A DNA stretch of 64,000 nucleotides. It comes from a bacterium UBP11_UBA4055. GTDB lineage: Bacteria; UBA4055. The notes beneath the pieces are model-generated. The model saw nothing but the letters and a program-made list of their open reading frames with translations. It made no database searches and had not been told where the DNA came from. Below, piece after piece: positions 47,199-55,335 of this stretch. Position 1 is the first letter of the stretch. Each line of letters starts with the position of its first letter. The position numbers and the translations under genes are program-made. The stretch spans positions 55,542-119,541 of the forward strand of contig DFZN01000071.1 of the NCBI GenBank assembly GCA_002382735.1. Reading direction: 5' to 3'.

Positions 47199-48062
47199 CT
47201 ATTCCTGTTTTTTATCTCTTATGAAAAATCTTGCCGCTGCGAAAGACGCTGTGATGACCGCCAAAAGGATTATAGCCGCCGCCCATCCCATTCCGTGCCA
47301 GTGCTCGTACGGGCTGATAGCCAGGTTGTACAGCCTTTGCGGCAGAGTATCGACCGGTCCGAATATCCAGCCTGTCCACTTGACCGGCAGGTAATTGTTG
47401 CCGAACGAGGTAAAAACCAGCGGCGCTGCTTCTCCGGCTGCCCTTGCGAACGCGATCAAAAATCCCGTTACGAGCCCTACTTTGGCCGCAGGGATGATAG
47501 TAGAGAGAATTACTCTCCATCTGGGCAGGCCGATAGCGAGCCCGGCTTCTCTGATCGACCACGGGATGTTCATCAGCGCGCTTTCGGTCGCTCTGGCGAT
47601 TATGGGGAACATGACGAAAGCCAGCGCGACGCCTCCGGAAAGCCCGGAAAACGAGCCCATGGGTTTTACGACAAGCACGAAAGCGAGCAGGCCTTTTAAG
47701 ACCGCGGGCATTCCGTTGAGCGTGTCGTTGAGCACTCTGAGGATCGGGTTCGCCCAATGGTCGGGATATTCTGACAGCATGACGCCCGCACCGATCCCGA
47801 ACGGGATCGATATCAGCACGGCCATAATATCAACGACAGCCGTACCTATGATCGTGTGAACAAGTCCTGTCGGTTCTCCCATCATGTTCCTTGTCGGCGA
47901 TCCGAGTTCTTTCGTGAACAGGTCGAGGCTGATATAATTAAATCCCTGGACTATTACATAGCCGAGTATGATAAAAAGAGGAATAAGAACCGCGACAGTA
48001 TTGAGTATTATAAAAACGAGCACAACATTATCCCGTGCGTATCTGCTTCTGAGACTCCTCAT
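47199..48062 (-). CDS. pstA: phosphate ABC transporter permease PstA
   Basis: A multi-TM permease with an EAA-like loop (…[14 protein letters not shown]…). The true start, MRSLRSRY, overlaps the pstC stop (ATGA). The track ORF to 48608 is an alternative-frame read-through of GC-rich DNA. Confidence 0.9.
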
Positions 48063-49063
48063 ACCGCCCTCCCGCCGGTCACCGCATATTTTCTCTGTAT
48101 ATAAGCGGCCGCCAGATTCACGATAAGCGATATCAGGAACAGGTAGAACCCTACGGCCATAAGGCTTGTTAAATGAATGTTCTCGACCGCTTCCCTGAAC
48201 TCGTTCACTATTACCGATGCCATGGTCGAACCGGGGCCGAAGAGGGTGAAGGGGAGAGTGTTCTTGTTCCCGATCAGCATCGCGACCGCCATCGTCTCGC
48301 CGATAGCTCTGCCCAGCGAGAGCATAGTGCCGGCAAGTATTCCGCCCCTTGAGTACGGGATCACGGCCATCCTGATGACCTCCCATTTGGTCGCGCCGAG
48401 AGCACTGGCGGCTTCCCGCTGCTCTTTGGGCACCATTCTGAACGCGTCCACCGTGAGAGCCGTAGTAAAAGGAATGATCATGATCGTTAAGATTATCGTC
48501 GCGGTCATCATTCCGTACCCGATCGGGTTTCCCAGAATGGGAGTCAGTCCCGGCGCGTTCTCCAGCGACCAGATGTAAACGGGAATCTCGACCGTGTCCC
48601 TGATCCACGGTGTGAATACGAACACTCCCCAGATCCCGATAACGACGGACGGGACAGCCGCTATCAGGTTAACAAGGTTCTCGATAATATGCGAGAGCCA
48701 GTGCGGAGCGTATTCGGCCGTGAAGACCGCGATCGCGATCGCGGGGATGAACGAAAGTGCCAGAGCACCGAGGCTTGTTGACACCGTGCCGACTATGAAC
48801 GGCCACGCACCGAATTCCATGGTTATAGCAGGATCCCATTTTTCGCCTGTTAAAAATCCCCAGAACCCGAATCTCGTGATCGCTTCCGAGCCCTCATAAT
48901 AAAGTGAAATGGCCATAGCGAGAGTCGTAAAAATGACGATAAATCCTAAAACGAAGACGGAGACAGCGAATATTCTGTCTCCGAGCCATCCGTACAGCGC
49001 AGACGGGCTGACATTTATTTTTTTTGTGTTGTTATCGGACACTTTATTAGTCTCCTTAGCCAA
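48059..49063 (-). CDS. pstC: phosphate ABC transporter permease PstC
   Basis: A multi-TM permease with an EAA motif (REAASALGATKWEVI). It has a TTG start; a GTG about 20 nt downstream is an alternative start. Confidence 0.9.
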   Translation of the reverse strand: MAKETNKVSDNNTKKINVSPSALYGWLGDRIFAVSVFVLGFIVIFTTLAMAISLYYEGSEAITRFGFWGFLTGEKWDPAITMEFGAWPFIVGTVSTSLGALALSFIPAIAIAVFTAEYAPHWLSHIIENLVNLIAAVPSVVIGIWGVFVFTPWIRDTVEIPVYIWSLENAPGLTPILGNPIGYGMMTATIILTIMIIPFTTALTVDAFRMVPKEQREAASALGATKWEVIRMAVIPYSRGGILAGTMLSLGRAIGETMAVAMLIGNKNTLPFTLFGPGSTMASVIVNEFREAVENIHLTSLMAVGFYLFLISLIVNLAAAYIQRKYAVTGGRAV

Positions 49064-50135
49064 GTATTTTTTTGCCGATCTCTTCGCCGTTCCATTTAAG
49101 TTCTCTTATCATAGCTTTGTTCTTATCTACTGCAGCCTTAGGAAGTTTTGCATATCCGAGCCTTTCCGAAAGACCCTGTCCGTCAGTGATAGCCCAAATA
49201 AGGAATTTTATCAGTTCTTCCGCTTCATTTTTTGATTTGATGGCTTTGTTCTTCTCGAGGTTCTCGTAAACGAGCATCCATGTGAATCCTGCCACAGGAT
49301 AGCCCTGAGCAGCAGGAGTATCGGTAAATATTATTCTTGTGTCCTCGGGAAGGTCTATGTTTGCAGCTTCTGAAGTCGCTTCGAAATTAGGCTTAATAGT
49401 ATTTCCTGACTTATTGATCAGATAACCGTAAGATATTTTGTTGAGCAGGGCATAGGCATAGCTGTTGTATCCCAGAGCTCCCGGAGTGTTCATTACGACT
49501 CCTGCGACTCCTTCATTCCCTTTAGCACCTACTCCGACAGGCCAGTTCACGCTTGTTGCATAACCGATCTTGTCGGCCCACTCTTTTGAAACTTTTGTCA
49601 GATAGCTTGTCCAGATGTTGGTGGTCCCCGATCCGTCAGATCTGTGTACGACTGTTATGTTCAGGTTTGGAAGCTTGATGCTTTTGTTCAGAGCCTGGAT
49701 ATTTTTGTCGTTCCATTTTTTGATCTTGCCCAGGAAAATGTCCGCGAGGACTTCGCCGTTAAAAACAACGCCTTCCTTTACGCCCGGTACATTATAAGTG
49801 ACTACAACATCAGCAAGTGTAATAGGCATGTTGAAAGCTCTTCCGCCCGTCTTTTTTTCCACTTCTTCAACGATCTCATCATTTAAAAAAGCCTCGGTCA
49901 TTCCGAACATTATCGTCTGTTCGCCGAACTGCCTGATACCGCCGCCAGAACCGATCGACTGATAGTTTACCGTTACTCTTCCGTCAGTTAAAGTTCTGTA
50001 CTGGTCAGCCATTGCTGTTACGAGAGGTGCCGGGAATGATGCCCCCGCACCGATCACTTCGATCTTCTGAGCAAAAGCCGTGCTCATTGCCGCAGCGATC
50101 ACGAGAGCGGCTGCCATTTTTTTTGTAAATCTCAT
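49056..50135 (-). CDS. pstS: phosphate-binding periplasmic protein PstS
   Basis: It has a signal peptide and blocks conserved in PstS/PBP family 2 (…GAGASFPAPL…, …YQSIGSGGG…, …SDGSGTT…). An AAGGAG RBS lies 7 nt before the ATG at 50135. Confidence 0.9.
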   Translation of the reverse strand: MRFTKKMAAALVIAAAMSTAFAQKIEVIGAGASFPAPLVTAMADQYRTLTDGRVTVNYQSIGSGGGIRQFGEQTIMFGMTEAFLNDEIVEEVEKKTGGRAFNMPITLADVVVTYNVPGVKEGVVFNGEVLADIFLGKIKKWNDKNIQALNKSIKLPNLNITVVHRSDGSGTTNIWTSYLTKVSKEWADKIGYATSVNWPVGVGAKGNEGVAGVVMNTPGALGYNSYAYALLNKISYGYLINKSGNTIKPNFEATSEAANIDLPEDTRIIFTDTPAAQGYPVAGFTWMLVYENLEKNKAIKSKNEAEELIKFLIWAITDGQGLSERLGYAKLPKAAVDKNKAMIRELKWNGEEIGKKILG

Positions 50136-50201
50136 AAACAATCTCCTTGTTAGTTTTCGTCTGTAATATCATGTTTGATTGTTTGAATAGTTTTTGCGAA
50201 T

Positions 50202-50221
50202 TGTTAGAATTGTGTTAGAAT
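50202..50221 (-). promoter_or_regulatory. putative Pho box: two TGTTAGAAT (minus-strand ATTCTAACA) direct repeats with 11-bp periodicity, 67-86 bp upstream of pstS
   Basis: The sequence is ttgTGTTAGAATtgTGTTAGAATtat. PhoB/PhoP-type boxes are 11-bp-periodic direct repeats. The same TCTAACA heptamer recurs at 55450. Confidence 0.45.
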
Positions 50222-50398
50222 TATAATTTTTAACATTAATTATTATGAATGACATTTAGTATTTATGTAACAAAAGTATCGAAATTCGGTATTTATCTCG
50301 TAGAGGAACTAAGATATGAGCATAACTGAAAATGATTTTTAACATTAAAATGGACAGTGCCCTGTATCTCTTTTCGAATTAAAAAAAAATCGGAAAAA

Positions 50399-50749
50399 CT
50401 AAATTATTTTAAGAGCGATGTCAGAAATCTGCTGTTTATTCTGAGGTAAATGGTTTTTTATCACATCCCAGATTATTTCATGATCTATCCCGAAGTATTC
50501 GTGAGAGACTTTGTTTCTCATAAGATACATCTCCATCCATGGAAAATCGGGGTATTGATCTTTTATTCCCTGAGAAATATTCTTTGCCGCTTCTCCAATC
50601 ACTTCTAAATTCCTGATAACAGCATCAACAGTCTTAGAGTCGTCAAGAAAATCATCATACTCCATACCGTTCACATACTCTTCAATTTTCTCAATTGAAA
50701 GGACTATATCTTCAAAATACATTCTATTTGTTCGAAGTTCTTTCTTCAT
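50399..50749 (-). CDS. hepT: HepT-like HEPN (DUF86) toxin
   Basis: The Rx4HxY motif is RNKVSHEY. It is a 116-aa protein whose start overlaps the upstream NTase stop. Confidence 0.8.
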   Translation of the reverse strand: MKKELRTNRMYFEDIVLSIEKIEEYVNGMEYDDFLDDSKTVDAVIRNLEVIGEAAKNISQGIKDQYPDFPWMEMYLMRNKVSHEYFGIDHEIIWDVIKNHLPQNKQQISDIALKII

Positions 50750-51039
50750 CAGATATATTTCACCTGGCTTAATATACTATCTCTAATCTGAGATTTCAGG
50801 GCATTTCTGGTTACAAGATCAACTTTTCTGCCAAGAATTTTTTGAAGGTATAATTCAAGAGTGAAATATTTCCAGCCGACAGGTTTCTTGAAATCTACTA
50901 AAATATCGACATCACTGTCGTTATTATAGCTGCCGTCTGAGAAAGATCCGAAAATACCGAGCCTTTCGACTGCGTATTCTTTAGCCAGTTCGGGCATTGA
51001 TCTTTTAAGGATTCCGATTATTTCTTCATCTTTTTTCAT
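50749..51039 (-). CDS. mntA: MntA-like minimal nucleotidyltransferase antitoxin
   Basis: LGIFGSFSDGSYNNDSDVDILVDF is the NTase GS…DxD motif. It lies upstream of, and overlapping, hepT. Confidence 0.8.
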   Translation of the reverse strand: MKKDEEIIGILKRSMPELAKEYAVERLGIFGSFSDGSYNNDSDVDILVDFKKPVGWKYFTLELYLQKILGRKVDLVTRNALKSQIRDSILSQVKYI

Positions 51040-51209
51040 AAAGGGAATTTAAACAAATTTAACTCCAACTGCAATGATTTTAACAAAAATCCTTTCTCCG
51101 CCATTATTTGGCGTAATCCTTTGTTTATATTTCTTCTGTCGTTAATTTTACTCGGAGGTAAATTATATGAAAGGCGCGATACATTATAAACTGAAAACGG
51201 AGTAAAATA

Positions 51210-52163
51210 ATGCCTGAAAAATATCAGATGGAAAGAATTCTCGCGGCTTTAAAAGCGCTCACGACGGTCGGTTACATCAAAAGAGAAAGCTTAATGGAGG
51301 AATGCCGGATAAGCTCGAGGACATTCGACAGGTTCATCGCCGATCTCAAGTTATATGTGCCCGTCATATATGACGATGTGAAAAACCGGTATGTGATCGA
51401 CCGCACCAAGGCTAATCAGAGAACCGAGATGCTTGAGTATTATAAAAAGGTGATGATAAAAGATGACTTTCTGCTTTTTTACGCGTTCGTTCGCAGCATG
51501 ATAAAAAGCAAATATTTTTTCCCGCCGTTCAGCACTGAATACGGTACATCATCGCAGCCCAGAGATTTTGCAAAGGTACTTAAGATGCTCGAGGATCTTG
51601 TCAGCCCTGTGGATAAAAAGATTTACGATAAGGTCGAATATTTTCTATCGGGGCATTATCATTTCCGGAACAGACCGCACTACAAAGATGTGTGCGAAAG
51701 GATATGGTATATGATCGCATATCTTGTTGAATCGAGCAAAGTGCCTGAAGAAGAATGCAATGTAGTCAGAACATACAAAATAGCATATATTAAGAATTCC
51801 GAGCTTGTAAAAGGCGAATTCTATCCCGTTCACGAAGAAGAACCGGAATACAGTTTCCAGAATTCCTTCGGGATCTATATGGATGAGGCTTTAAAAAGAG
51901 CGGTCATCAATATTTATGGACATGCTGCGCATGACGCAATGGAGATCGTATGGCATCAGGATCAGTTCACGCGAGATCTGAAAGACGGGGACGGAAACAA
52001 GTTTACCCAGATAAGCCTGGATTATCCCGAAAAGGGCGGGGTTGAGCTGATGTCGAGAGTTTTGTCATTCGGTACAAATGCCGAAATAGTGTCGCCACCG
52101 GAATTGAAAGCTCAGTGGCAGAATGAAATTAATGCTATGGGCAAAAAGTTTCTAAAGGAATAA
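51210..52163 (+). CDS. WYL-domain transcriptional regulator (N-terminal HTH, central WYL, C-terminal WCX-like; PafBC/BrxR/CapW-like)
   Basis: The N-terminal HTH is YIKRESLMEECRISSRTFDRFIADL. The C-terminal VLSFGTNAEIVSPPELKAQW resembles the conserved '…ILSFGxxVEVLEPxELR' tail of WYL regulators. Confidence 0.6.
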   Translation: MPEKYQMERILAALKALTTVGYIKRESLMEECRISSRTFDRFIADLKLYVPVIYDDVKNRYVIDRTKANQRTEMLEYYKKVMIKDDFLLFYAFVRSMIKSKYFFPPFSTEYGTSSQPRDFAKVLKMLEDLVSPVDKKIYDKVEYFLSGHYHFRNRPHYKDVCERIWYMIAYLVESSKVPEEECNVVRTYKIAYIKNSELVKGEFYPVHEEEPEYSFQNSFGIYMDEALKRAVINIYGHAAHDAMEIVWHQDQFTRDLKDGDGNKFTQISLDYPEKGGVELMSRVLSFGTNAEIVSPPELKAQWQNEINAMGKKFLKE

Positions 52164-52175
52164 TCCCGAATAAAA

Positions 52176-52595
52176 TTATAAATTATTTCGAACTGAATGA
52201 ATCCTTACCGGAATCACTTTTGAGAACTCAAAAAAGTCTTTGTCGGTACTAAAAATGCTTATATTTCTGTTTATAGAGACGGCGCAGATGAGAAAATCTA
52301 TATGAGACCCCTGTATTCCATTCTTACGGCAGATATTATACAGCTCAGAAGCCTTCTCGTAATCTTCAGAATTTATAGCCATATCTTCAAAATATTTTAA
52401 TTTGTCTTTCAGCATTTCATATTTTTCAGCCTGAGAAATTCCTGATAATAACTCCTGCCTAACAGGTCCGATGATCACCGCTCTAAATTCTTTTATCAGT
52501 TCCTTAAGCTCATTCACCGTCTTTTTTTCATCGCCTGTAAGAGTCTTTTTTCTCAGAGCGAGTGACCATACCGAGGTGTCAATAAGAACTTTCAT
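52176..52595 (-). CDS. vapC: PIN-domain ribonuclease toxin VapC
   Basis: MKVLIDTSVW carries Asp6. Acidic residues are conserved in later helices. It overlaps the upstream antitoxin by 4 nt. Confidence 0.8.
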   Translation of the reverse strand: MKVLIDTSVWSLALRKKTLTGDEKKTVNELKELIKEFRAVIIGPVRQELLSGISQAEKYEMLKDKLKYFEDMAINSEDYEKASELYNICRKNGIQGSHIDFLICAVSINRNISIFSTDKDFFEFSKVIPVRIHSVRNNL

Positions 52596-52792
52596 TTTCT
52601 GTTTCTCATTTTTTTATAATCATAATCTTTTTCATATTCGACAGTCCCGAATATCCCGATTATTTCTTCCTGCTTGTGGTGCATGATAAATTCGCGCAGA
52701 GCTGTATTAACGGTTTCTTTCTTGGTCGGAATACAGGAAATTTTCTGTGCTTCGATTATTAGATTATCGTCAAGTGATAGATTCGTAGGCAT
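52592..52792 (-). CDS. vapB: VapB-family antitoxin
   Basis: MPTNLSLDDNLIIEAQKISCIPTKKETVNTALREF is the typical VapB/DUF2191 N-terminus. AGGAGG lies 6 nt upstream of the ATG at 52792. The track starts earlier, at 52831. Confidence 0.7.
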   Translation of the reverse strand: MPTNLSLDDNLIIEAQKISCIPTKKETVNTALREFIMHHKQEEIIGIFGTVEYEKDYDYKKMRNRK

Positions 52793-52862
52793 AACAACCT
52801 CCTTGTTTCTTTTGTGTGTAATATAACACAAACCAATGTGTAAGTCAAATTTTTATTATAAA

Positions 52863-54635
52863 TTATTTCGGGATAACCAGTGTAAAAGTCGATCCCTTGC
52901 CGACTTCGCTTTCAACTGTCGCTCTGCCTTTGTGCAGGTTCATGATGTGTTTGACTATGGAAAGCCCTAAACCCGTTCCGCCTTCTTTTCTGCTTCTTGA
53001 TTTGTCTATGCGGTAAAATCGCTCGAATATTTTGTCGAAATGAACAGGACTGATCCCCTGGCCTTTGTCAGTTACGGAGAAGTTGACTGTACCTTCCTCC
53101 TCGAAACATTTTACTGAGACTTCGGAACCTTCAGGGCTGTATTTTATCGCATTGTCAACGAGGTTCAAAAGAGCCTGTTCGATAAGAGGCTGGCTGCATC
53201 TGAAGTTCCCTGATAAAGAAGAACCGGACTGAATCGCGATCTTTTTTTCACCGGCCTTTCCGGAGCACAATTCTTTTACATTATTAATAATGACATCGGC
53301 TTTTGCTTCGCTCAGTTCGAATTCTTCTTCCTTCTCCTCTTTCTCCAGAGTAGCCAGTGTAAGCAGGTCCTCGATTATTGAATTGAGCCTGTCAACATGT
53401 TTTTGTATAATATTGAGAAATTTCCGCCGGTCATCGTCAGACTGTTCCTCGTCGATAAGAGTTTCAACGAACCCCTTTATGGAAGTCAGCGGAGTTCTTA
53501 ATTCGTGCGAGACATTGGCTACGAATTCCCGCCTGATGTTCTCGAGCCTCTTAATATCGGTGATATCGTGCATAACTATGACCGCGCCTATCGTTTTACC
53601 GAAAGCGTCCTGCAGCGAACTTCCCTGAATGTGAATGAAAATATCTCTGCCTTCAAAATTGAGCCGCATTTCCTTCTTTTCGGAGGTCACAAGATTATTC
53701 TTAACTAGTGATGTAATGAATTCCTGGATCTTTGTGTTCCTTGTTGCCTCCTGGATCAGTTTACCCTGGGCTTTCTGCGGATCAGCACCGAGTATTCTGC
53801 AGGCCGACTGGTTTATCATTATGACCCTGTCGTCCAAATCAACTGCGATCACACCCTCGATCATGGATTTTAGAATAGCGGACTGTTCCTTATTCCTCAG
53901 CTCAAGTTTTTTGATCTTTTCCTCAAGCTCGCCGGCCATAAAATCCATTGTTTCCGAAAGCTGATTGGTCTCGTATTGCGAATATTCCTCGATCAGATGT
54001 TTAAAATCCCCGTTGGCGAACTTCTTTGCCTTGTTCTTAAGCTGTATCAGGGGCGCGCTGAGCCTTTTTGACAAATACAGGCTTACTGCGGCGAGGAGCA
54101 GCACGACTATAGTTACCACCCAGAGTATCCTTTTTGTGAAAAGTATGATCGTTTCAGTGAAGCTCATCAGCGGATAGGCGGTTCTCACCACGATTTTCCT
54201 GCCGTTTACATTATATACGGGGAGAGCGGCGTACATCAGGTCCTTCTTTAAAGTGGAGCTGAACCTGACCGACCTTCCTCTTTCTCCGGACAGCGCGGCT
54301 GAGACTTCGGGCCTTGTCCTGTGATTTTCCATTGCCGATGCTGTTTCTTTGCTGTCTGCCAGAACAACACCGTTCTCATCGATCACCGTTATTCTGGTGG
54401 TAAGAGCCGAAGCGTATCCCGTAACGATACTGTCGAGCATAGATAACTCATCATCATCCACACTTTCAAGCTGGGCTTTGACGAGCGTGCCTTCATTAAC
54501 TATCTTTTCGAAAATAAAATCCGAGTAGATGTTTTTAAATGTTCTCACCGAAAATATTACTATCAGCAGTCCCGACACGAAGGTTATAAAAACGAATGCG
54601 GGAAAAATGCTCCAGAAAAAAGGTTTTCTTTTCAT
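52863..54635 (-). CDS. phoR: phosphate-regulon-type sensor histidine kinase (2 TM, HAMP, PAS, HisKA, HATPase_c)
   Basis: HisKA is NVSHELRTPLTSIKGFVETL, the PhoR-type H-box. HATPase motifs are LVDNAIKYS, DKGQGIS and GTGLGLSIVKHI. It is adjacent to phoB and near pst. The start was chosen at MKRKPFF. Confidence 0.75.
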   Translation of the reverse strand: MKRKPFFWSIFPAFVFITFVSGLLIVIFSVRTFKNIYSDFIFEKIVNEGTLVKAQLESVDDDELSMLDSIVTGYASALTTRITVIDENGVVLADSKETASAMENHRTRPEVSAALSGERGRSVRFSSTLKKDLMYAALPVYNVNGRKIVVRTAYPLMSFTETIILFTKRILWVVTIVVLLLAAVSLYLSKRLSAPLIQLKNKAKKFANGDFKHLIEEYSQYETNQLSETMDFMAGELEEKIKKLELRNKEQSAILKSMIEGVIAVDLDDRVIMINQSACRILGADPQKAQGKLIQEATRNTKIQEFITSLVKNNLVTSEKKEMRLNFEGRDIFIHIQGSSLQDAFGKTIGAVIVMHDITDIKRLENIRREFVANVSHELRTPLTSIKGFVETLIDEEQSDDDRRKFLNIIQKHVDRLNSIIEDLLTLATLEKEEKEEEFELSEAKADVIINNVKELCSGKAGEKKIAIQSGSSLSGNFRCSQPLIEQALLNLVDNAIKYSPEGSEVSVKCFEEEGTVNFSVTDKGQGISPVHFDKIFERFYRIDKSRSRKEGGTGLGLSIVKHIMNLHKGRATVESEVGKGSTFTLVIPK

Positions 54636-54645
54636 GATCTTATCT

Positions 54646-55335
54646 CTATTTATCCATAAATCTGTATCCGATGCCTCTGACCGTCTGAATATATTTTCCG
54701 GCATCTTTAAGTTTCTTCCTCAGGCTGACCATCATAACATCCACGCTTCTGTCGGTCACCGGATAATTCTCCCCGTGAACGCTTTCAACGATCTGATACC
54801 GCGTGAATACCCAGCCCGGCCGTCCTGCAAGTAGGTGCAGCGCTTTGAATTCCGATGCCGTAAGCATGATCTTTTCATTTTTGACTATAACTTCGTATCT
54901 GCCGGGTACTATCTGCATCTCATGTACCGAGATATTCTCTTTTTTGATCTCGGTGATCTGTTCTTTACGCCTGAGAACTGCTTTAATCCTTGCCACGAGA
55001 ACTTTTGGCGAGAAGGGTTTCAGAATATAATCGTCAGCGCCTATCTCGAGCCCCGTGATAATGTCAGTTTCTTCTCCTTTCGCGGTCAGCATGATCACAG
55101 GGATATTTTCTGTGGAAGGAGACTTTTTCAGTTTCTTGCATATCTCAAGACCGTCCATTCCCGGAAGCATGAGGTCGAGAAGAACAAGATCACAGGCGTC
55201 TGTTTCGATGTATTCCAGAAATTCCTCGCCACTGCCGAATACTTTTGTTACGAACGAATTTTTTGCAAGATTGTAGGAGATCAGCTCCTGTATATCTTCC
55301 TCGTCCTCTACTACAAATATTCTTTCCCTGCCCAT
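54646..55335 (-). CDS. phoB: OmpR/PhoB-family response regulator
   Basis: REC is IFVVEDEEDI…LVLLDLMLPGMDG…VIMLTAKGEE…DDYILKPFSPKVLVARIKAVLRR, a PhoB-like signature. It has a C-terminal winged helix (…VRGIGYRF). Confidence 0.85.
   Translation of the reverse strand: MGRERIFVVEDEEDIQELISYNLAKNSFVTKVFGSGEEFLEYIETDACDLVLLDLMLPGMDGLEICKKLKKSPSTENIPVIMLTAKGEETDIITGLEIGADDYILKPFSPKVLVARIKAVLRRKEQITEIKKENISVHEMQIVPGRYEVIVKNEKIMLTASEFKALHLLAGRPGWVFTRYQIVESVHGENYPVTDRSVDVMMVSLRKKLKDAGKYIQTVRGIGYRFMDK

Follow-up and report, generated by a model that had tools for sequence, protein, structure and literature searches.

Between pstS and phoR, in a 64,000-nt stretch of contig DFZN01000071.1 from the bacterium UBP11_UBA4055 (here called the window, its first letter being position 1), lie five open reading frames (ORFs) that a preliminary description of the sequence had read as a toxin-antitoxin (TA)/defense islet. 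We confirmed all five at the positions first assigned to them, and ORFs together with domain matches bear out the flanks that had been claimed, pstSCAB-phoU on one side and phoBR on the other. The islet holds a mntA-hepT pair, a vapBC pair and, between the two, a gene for a regulator of the winged helix-turn-helix (wHTH)-WYL-WCX class, referred to below as the central gene or the WYL gene (Table 1). It belongs to already known kinds of arrangement, namely TA/defense islets and WYL regulators at island edges. The comparisons described here make it probable that the islet is a mosaic at a lineage-specific variable site in Candidatus Delongbacteria, assembled by at least two to three separate events, and not one working unit.

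All genes from phoB to phoU are on the minus strand except the central gene, with which vapBC is convergent. The G+C content is 30-37% over mntA-hepT and vapBC versus 42-58% in the pst and pho genes. All five islet genes read as real, and the start-stop overlaps noted earlier for both TA pairs are present, at 1 nt for mntA/hepT and 4 nt for vapB/vapC. The accompanying claim of good ribosome-binding sites (RBSs) stands for vapB (AAGGAGG) and, to a moderate degree, for the WYL gene (GGAG), but no Shine-Dalgarno-like sequence is visible for mntA.

Table 1. Features of the phoR-pstS interval in window coordinates
Feature	Position	Strand	Description
pstS	49056-50141	minus	
pstS upstream region	50142-50398	minus	kept downstream of the islet
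TGTTAGAA direct repeat pair	50203-50221		candidate Pho box
Inserted DNA	~50221-52862		2.6 kb
hepT	50399-50749	minus	116 aa; predicted HEPN ribonuclease toxin, type VII pair
mntA	50749-51039	minus	96 aa; predicted minimal nucleotidyltransferase antitoxin
mntA/WYL-gene divergent intergenic region	51040-51209		170 nt
16-bp palindrome GATTTTAACAAAAATC	51076-51091		candidate operator
WYL-gene promoter-like site	51080-51085 (-35), 51102-51107 (-10)		-35 TTAACA, -10 CATTAT
mntA promoter-like site	51190 to 51162	minus	
Central WYL-class gene	51210-52163	plus	317 aa; wHTH-(WYL)-WCX regulator with a 96-nt in-frame deletion
16-nt direct repeat ATTATAAATTATTTCG, copy 1	52175-52190		holds last codons and stop of vapC
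vapC	52176-52595	minus	139 aa; predicted PIN-domain toxin
vapB	52592-52792	minus	66-aa antitoxin from ATG at 52792; listed ORF 52592-52831 (79 aa)
vapBC promoter-like site	52813-52848	minus	
16-nt direct repeat, copy 2	52855-52870		holds last codons and stop of phoR
phoR	52863-54704	minus	

Comparison loci were taken from a PstS scan of one genome per species, which also placed the source organism in Candidatus Delongbacteria. In one relative (L014), phoB-phoR is followed after a 158-nt gap by pstS-pstC-pstA-pstB-phoU, and in another (L013) phoR and pstS are separated by 242 nt. These two contiguous loci uphold the proposal that the islet is an insertion between phoBR and pst. Because phoBR also lies upstream of and co-directional with pstS in several more distant lineages, adjacency of phoBR and pst is likely the ancestral state. 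BLAST boundaries put the point from which the window again matches the empty sites at about 50220, and the end of its homology to a filled relative (L012) at about 50333.

Other relatives carry different cargo at the site. In L015 (UBA12480), a decayed vapBC directly follows phoR in the form of a fused 73-aa vapB'-'vapC ORF that joins the two C-termini, and its DNA aligns collinearly, at 77-89% identity, with that of the window from phoR into vapB. Next to this remnant are a ribbon-helix-helix antitoxin (DUF6364/RHH_5) and a ParE-family toxin, followed by pstS, and no WYL gene is present (L015:2566-3353). In L012, whose PstS is 97% identical to that of the window, an AbiEi/AbiEii pair adjoins pstS where the window has mntA-hepT. 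The closest WYL gene, which is intact, was found in L005-L008; it is convergent with phoR over a 25-nt gap, is accompanied by neither vapBC nor mntA-hepT and is preceded by two AbiE pairs, five ORFs of no known function and a WCX-only remnant. The three units that had been described as one associated set are therefore largely found apart in relatives (L005-L008, L015 and L012). The remnant (L005:1865-1996) immediately follows the first AbiE pair and keeps 43 aa of a second WYL-family gene; it is 79% identical to the C-terminus of homologue P0020 and matches PF25583 at E 2e-6. Within islands, repeated decay of WYL genes of this subfamily seems to occur.

The WYL gene and its core neighbors differ in their divergence from L005. 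Nucleotide identity between the window and L005 is 89% for the WYL gene versus 71% for phoR, 77% for phoB and 72% for a glycosyltransferase gene, and the number of synonymous substitutions per site (dS) is 0.62 for the WYL gene versus 2.28 for phoB, with phoR saturated. This dS contrast with the flanking genes supports a separate history for the WYL gene, which would have reached the locus more recently than the core genes diverged; its lateral transfer rests on this one pairwise comparison.

A mobile-element origin of the islet was considered and rejected. No blastn match to it was found in plasmid and phage collections, WYL-family relatives were not found in viral contigs, no integrase or mobile-element boundary was found at the islet, there is no tRNA gene within 45-57 kb, and Rfam gave no match above noise. 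To survey the phoR-pstS gap more widely, metagenomes were scanned with PhoR, but the only matches were six distant histidine kinases of 25-33% identity. In more distant phyla the gap often holds an ORF of 160-174 aa and/or one of 330-430 aa. The former (L017:9382-9864, L049:2471-2956, L063:2968-3492 and L024:6207-6725) resemble by eye a small sigma-70-type factor, and the latter (L020:4051-5166, L074:8626-9918, L078:8859-9947 and L090:7430-8650) an outer-membrane porin.

The vapBC pair has features of a unit in its own right. VapC matches PF01850 (PIN) at E 2e-11, scores 90.7 bits against the NCBIfam VapC equivalog NF047959 (cut-off 80) and has all four acidic PIN residues (D6, E48, D100 and D118). 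VapB matches PF09957 at E 2e-15, the match beginning at residue 14 of the 79-aa ORF. The vapB start is most likely the ATG at 52792, the choice of gene callers and the point from which the Pfam match extends; a start further upstream, at the TTG at 52831, is less likely. The promoter scan placed its best match in the region upstream of vapB, at 10 of 12 positions (-35 TTGACT, a 17-nt spacer and a TG-extended -10 TATATT), and interlocked palindromes (ACACA-N6-TGTGT and TGTGT-N6-ACACA) cover 52815-52841. The -35, the -10 and the first palindrome are kept upstream of the vapBC remnant in L015. VapBC would be a self-contained type II pair with a promoter and a palindromic operator-like site of its own, so that autoregulation, by VapB or by the VapBC complex, is presumed. 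The vapB leader resembles that of pstS (repeats D6 and D7), but its origin by duplication of the pstS leader was rejected, as the L015 vapB leader has no similar RBS stretch; vapB and pstS probably just have strong Shine-Dalgarno regions that are alike.

An exact 16-nt direct repeat, ATTATAAATTATTTCG, brackets vapBC. Its length is beyond chance, since 500 simulations of the region under a first-order Markov model gave no repeat as long as 16 nt. Only one copy is present in L005, at the exact corresponding junction, where vapBC is absent. The copy at the vapC end is identical to the phoR terminus and supplies the last five vapC codons, and the native vapC end seen in L015 has been replaced in the window (RNNLTS* to RNNL*). 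We infer that the recipient was a genome with phoR-vapBC already in place, into which a WYL-bearing fragment from an L005-like arrangement, together with the last phoR bases, recombined at the end of vapC. Insertion of vapBC with a 16-nt target duplication is a possible alternative source of the repeat pair.

The second pair is of a different class. HepT matches PF01934 at E 1e-30 in Pfam, and MntA matches PF01909 (NTP_transf_2) at E 1e-14 and Polbeta at E 2e-11. The motifs defined for such pairs, RX4HXY in the HEPN toxin and GSX10DXD in the minimal nucleotidyltransferase (MNT) antitoxin (PMC7641770), are present as RNKVSHEY at HepT residues 78-85 and as GSFSDGSYNNDSDVD at MntA residues 31-45. 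Against the NCBIfam equivalog models (NF047751 and NF047752), HepT scores 47.9 bits with HepT_toxin and MntA 45.0 bits, both under the cut-off of 60, which is a curation threshold and not a mechanistic feature. MntA also matches the PADLOC candidate family PDC-S09 over its full length at E 1.8e-28. The label type II used earlier for this nucleotidyltransferase/HEPN pair has to be replaced: NCBIfam names and the literature place MntA-HepT in type VII, with neutralization by AMPylation (PMC7641770). Because both proteins score under the equivalog cut-offs, the window pair is best described as predicted divergent members of that class. As an autonomous type VII pair, MntA, through its GSX10DXD motif, would AMPylate the tyrosine of the HepT RX4HXY motif and so hold the HEPN RNase off.

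The domains proposed for the two TA pairs were thus all matched in hidden Markov model (HMM) searches (PF01934, PF01909, PF01850 and PF09957), but the central protein gave no match to PF13280 (WYL) at E 0.01. Its PF25583 (WCX) score of 21.9 bits is just under the Pfam threshold of 23.9. It matched generic WYL models of PADLOC at E 5e-11 and 1e-6, and Cas3c-type models were matched as well. No Pfam HTH match was found in the protein; a wHTH is modeled at residues 4-63 as three helices and a β-hairpin, and PADLOC PDLC01457 covers residues 7-64. Among 5.8 billion proteins there were 20 homologues, the full-length ones being 343-364 aa. Most of these carry precomputed PF13280 and PF25583 annotations, and several, under the names YafY or WYL domain-containing protein, come from Candidatus Delongbacteria metagenome-assembled genomes (MAGs). 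The PF13280 match of intact homologues extends over residues ~161-230, with scores of 25.8-35.3 bits (cut-off 21.8). The subfamily is small, with 15 clusters at 50% identity and E <= 1e-30 among 1.84 billion representatives.

In a fold search with an intact homologue, all 29 Protein Data Bank (PDB) matches with E <= 0.001 were DriD, PafBC, CapW or BrxR, and the earlier placement of the central gene in the HTH-WYL-WCX class is sustained by these matches. DriD was matched at E 5e-12 and BrxR at E 9e-7 to 7e-5 with 9-14% identity. With the model of the window protein, DriD was still the best match at 5.6e-6, six orders weaker, and CapW and BrxR were lost. The family profile searched against PDB sequences reached DriD only (E ~1e-6 over the end of WYL and WCX) and did not reach BrxR. 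By sequence comparison and modeled fold, the central gene is assigned to a small, DriD-like subfamily of wHTH-WYL-WCX regulators. In the window protein itself no WYL domain is detectable by HMM or, less clearly, in the structure model.

This loss is due to a deletion. Between I165 and W166 the window protein lacks 32 residues that are present in every full-length homologue; in the closest, P0002 (348 aa), they are residues 166-197, MNSFKTENLMKFDYFKSTIKVEPLKMVFYNGK, and in the alignment they include the nearly invariant positions S, T, Y, PLK, V and YNGK. At the DNA level, the alignment with L005 has one clean 96-nt in-frame gap (junction 51703/51704), with no more than 1-2 nt of microhomology at the ends of the deletion. 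The exact 317-aa protein occurs on 7 contigs, four separate metagenome assemblies among them, so the deletion is real and not an assembly error. It spans the end of a helix and strands β1-β2 of the WYL barrel, approximately the first half of the WYL domain.

AlphaFold models of the window protein and of P0002 were each built from a 16-sequence alignment. In the window model the predicted local distance difference test score (pLDDT) is below 50 at residues 142-175 and 184-227, with 10-residue block means of 26-49 over residues 141-230. The wHTH is still modeled (block pLDDT 74-88, residues 11-60), and residues 230-315 are modeled as β-strands and helices, with WCX block means mostly 52-81. The intact P0002 model has a helix and a confident five-strand barrel at residues ~160-240 (pLDDT 67-91). 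In DriD, the effector pocket for single-stranded DNA (ssDNA) is formed by the linker and by β2 and β3 of the WYL domain (PMC9186387). The window gene lacks β1-β2, part of the platform that binds ssDNA in DriD, and because the deletion hits this DriD-type effector platform the protein would be either inactive or a signal-blind DNA binder.

Compared with its L005 counterpart, the WYL gene has a ratio of nonsynonymous to synonymous substitutions (dN/dS) of 0.05 as a whole and of 0.07 in what remains of the WYL domain. These values point to purifying selection for most of the time since the two gene copies split; a pairwise dN/dS averages that whole time and cannot date the deletion.

The divergent region between mntA and the WYL gene contains promoter-like sites for both (promoter scan; Table 1). 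The 16-bp palindrome GATTTTAACAAAAATC overlaps the -35 of the WYL gene and is a candidate operator and, given the position of the mntA promoter-like site, would also lie in the predicted mntA leader. A 31-nt element that includes part of the palindrome is identical at 26 of 31 positions upstream of a 59%-identical homologue in L009/L010, where the surrounding DNA is unaligned. If the truncated protein binds DNA, its target would be this palindrome at its own promoter, with possible effects on both the WYL gene and mntA-hepT. A 12-codon upstream ORF (MKGAIHYKLKTE) with a strong GGAGG Shine-Dalgarno sequence lies at 51167-51205 and stops 4 nt short of the ATG of the WYL gene; an upstream ORF beginning ATGAAA occupies the same place in L005, and gene callers list a 34-aa ORF there in L006 and L008.

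The preliminary description had proposed to look for the likely operator of the WYL protein, as inverted repeats, upstream of both TA operons. No common operator was found in the two intergenic regions, as mntA/WYL and phoR/vapB share only short AT-rich repeats. The palindrome element has one copy in the window, with 0 expected by chance, and on this ground a shared operator for both TA promoters was rejected. A degenerate palindrome pattern was found in 0 of 96 fetched loci, the L009/L010 copy differing from it by one spacing base.

On the pst side of the islet, about 60-80 nt upstream of pstS, TGTTAGAA occurs twice as a direct repeat with a spacing of 11 bp. The pair, which reads TTCTAACACAATTCTAACA on the pstS strand, is kept in all five Delongbacteria pstS loci (the window and L012-L015) and is a candidate Pho box. 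No convincing terminator was found between phoR and vapB or between hepT and pstS, and read-through from and into the Pho operons is therefore possible. A split bidirectional WYL/phoR terminator was considered and rejected; the L005 hairpin is weak (-5.4 and -6.4 kcal/mol, z ~-1.8) and the window halves are no better than shuffles.

Several observations concern the flanking genes themselves. Two of them are over-extended in the mechanical ORF list: pstA (47199-48608) stands there as 469 aa from a GTG overlapping pstC, against 287 aa from gene callers, and phoR as 613 aa with a 59-nt overlap with phoB, against 590 aa in the gene call of one assembly. Over pstC and pstA (47200-49000 of the window) G+C is 52-58% versus about 35-46% around them. 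After Delongbacteria, the nearest PstS relatives (~70% identity) are from MAGs labeled Bacteroidales, Cloacimonadota, Chitinispirillum, Elusimicrobia and Fibrobacter. Lateral transfer may have played a part in the past of the pst operon.

The WYL subfamily is not confined to the phoR-pstS interval. It was also found in eight further loci, which represent three other chromosomal sites: after a 2030-aa helicase-nuclease (L011 and L096), after an asparaginase/permease pair (L092-L095) and before an Oxidored_FMN/DUF1036 pair (L009 and L010); a short contig, L097, has no recognizable core flanks. In every pair compared, conserved DNA runs as far as the WYL gene and gives way there to unrelated sequence. 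On the variable side are DarT-DarG, type I restriction-modification subunits, AbiE, HTH-SocA/Panacea (PanA), PemK, Fic, a DUF6036 nucleotidyltransferase, SNF2-PLD, Eco57I-type methyltransferases, an SLFN-like ATPase, ORF6N, KilA-N and RhuM. Neither MntA-HepT nor VapBC adjoins the WYL gene in these further loci. Judged by this gene content, the association of the subfamily with defense/TA islands is real at the family level, a parallel to published work on BrxR-family WYL regulators (PMC9122601), and the general expectation that WYL regulators stand beside such genes is borne out for it at L005-L011 and L092-L097.

L009 (4267-6940) and L010 (4341-6444) come from one metagenome and have an identical WYL protein in surrounding DNA that is 98.6% identical. 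The slot upstream of the WYL gene holds DarT-DarG in L009 versus AbiEi/AbiEii in L010. In L009 it is bracketed by ~430-nt direct repeats of 98-99% identity, with related repeats in L010; the small ORFs that these encode consist of tandem units of 17 aa (YIKDYSSGKRLYQYDGK-like) and gave no match in Pfam. The arrangement resembles an exchange of cassettes between the repeats on either side. L010 also has a 706-aa protein directly after a PglX-like methyltransferase (L010:2177-4297), whose C-terminal half is 31% identical to the whole WYL regulator (WCX E 3e-7, WYL weak) and which appears to be a fused, larger relative of the regulator in the same island.

The preliminary description suggested a co-regulated abortive-infection-like cassette; in such a model the WYL protein would be a common, signal-responsive repressor of both RNase toxin modules. 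The occurrence of the subfamily beside defense and TA genes fits this proposal, as does the divergent region shared by the WYL gene and mntA-hepT, with the palindrome in the predicted mntA leader. However, the units occur separately in relatives, half of the sensor domain is deleted and PF13280 is unmatched, vapBC runs toward the WYL gene from a promoter-like site and palindromes of its own, and the palindrome element is single-copy. PADLOC recognizes no known multi-gene system at the islet; in PADLOC-DB v2 only MntA matches a system model (PDC-S09), and HepT, VapB and VapC have no match. We consider a single cassette of this kind very improbable. A coupling to the Pho genes, in which vapBC is read through from phoBR and mntA-hepT reads into pstS so that TA expression is tied to phosphate starvation, is unlikely. 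All islet genes but the WYL gene are co-directional with the Pho genes, the phoR stop is 31 nt from the vapB ORF (70 nt from the preferred ATG at 52792), convincing terminators are lacking at both junctions, and the candidate Pho box and pstS promoter region are kept. Against it, vapBC has its own strong promoter-like site, and the site is empty or holds other cargo (AbiE, ParE) in relatives, so that any Pho coupling would be incidental and not selected. The mosaic reading, under which the units arrived piecemeal, accommodates the separate units, the empty site and the dS contrast, but several points weigh against it. Only six distinct Delongbacteria phoR-pstS versions were seen, which makes "hotspot" a term resting on a small sample, and the L005-type contigs end before any pstS, so that their island is placed only next to phoR. 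The structure models are shallow, with mean pLDDT of only 57 and 67, and the truncated WYL gene has no sign of decay by dN/dS, which fits either a very recent deletion or a kept function.

The last point bears on what the deletion did. It may have made a working signal-blind regulator that sits constitutively on the palindrome, locking its own promoter and, by roadblock, mntA-hepT; we regard this as possible but doubtful. The reading frame is intact and identical across contigs and assemblies, dN/dS is low even in the WYL remnant, the wHTH and WCX are still modeled, and the promoter and palindrome element is kept in L009/L010. In addition, WCX is the dimerization domain of DriD, and full-length DriD binds its operator without ssDNA (Kd 25 nM; PMC9186387). 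On the other side, the dN/dS is an average since the L005 split, the half-barrel may misfold and destabilize the whole protein (pLDDT below 50 over residues 142-227), and the DriD WYL domain positions the HTH domains via the linker, so that loss of β1-β2 could abolish productive DNA binding. A broader proposal, which we hold to be improbable, makes the subfamily a portable island-boundary element: gene, promoter and palindrome would move laterally as an anchor or homology arm for swapped TA/defense cassettes, and the window copy would be a sensor-less allele with MntA-HepT under signal-blind control. It fits the WCX-only remnant of L005, the 16-nt copy of the phoR end at the vapC end and the exchange of DarTG for AbiE between L009 and L010.

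A WYL gene flanked by TA pairs looks like a regulated defense cassette, and the piecemeal accumulation seen in relatives advises caution with such readings. In a poorly studied candidate phylum, for which a literature search on Delongbacteria gave nothing on defense or TA loci, the phoR-pstS junction can be empty or hold different TA/Abi modules, and one small WYL subfamily marks the edges of variable defense islands in several places on the chromosome. Should the truncated regulator have kept its DNA binding, it would offer a natural sensor-less WYL allele for testing how the WYL domain controls that binding.

Defense-island hotspots between conserved core genes have been described in E. coli, Pseudomonas, Vibrio and Serratia. 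The islet is like them in its conserved flanks, phoR and pstS, in the empty and differently filled versions of the site in relatives and in its low-GC cargo. It is unlike them in that no integrase, tRNA or mobile-element boundary was found, in that the islet had no match in plasmid, phage or viral-contig collections, and in that the site lies inside the functionally linked Pho cluster and was sampled in six genomes.

The window VapBC resembles other type II VapBC pairs in its PIN toxin, which exceeds the VapC equivalog cut-off and has the four acidic residues, and in the PF09957 antitoxin encoded upstream with a 4-nt overlap; it differs in the last five vapC codons, which come from the 16-nt copy of the phoR 3' end. 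MntA-HepT can be compared with HepT/MntA of Shewanella oneidensis (SO_3166/SO_3165; PMC7641770), with which it shares the pairing of PF01934 and PF01909, the upstream position of the MNT gene and both motifs, whereas the window proteins fall under the NCBIfam cut-offs (47.9 and 45.0 versus 60).

BrxR-family WYL regulators co-localize with phage-defense systems and islands (Picton et al. 2022, PMC9122601). Intact homologues of the central protein share the wHTH-WYL-WCX architecture of this family and of CapW of CBASS, a placement beside variable defense and TA genes, and a palindrome at their own predicted promoter. The relation is a distant one of fold only (E 1e-6 to 1e-4, 9-14% identity), and the window copy lacks half of the WYL domain. 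Unlike BrxR, the subfamily gene is in most loci not at the operon head and often lies within the island or is its final gene; the central protein, reached by fold search only and not leading an operon, falls outside the strict BrxR family.

The closest relative of the subfamily with a solved structure is DriD of Caulobacter crescentus (PDB 8TP8 and 7TZV), an ssDNA-activated WYL transcription activator that controls a DNA-damage regulon (PMC9186387, PMC10853764). Identity is 16-22%, the subfamily sits in defense/TA islands, and the window protein has lost β1-β2 of the corresponding effector-binding platform. DriD gives the best sequence-profile and fold match here and is of similar length, about 330-350 aa.

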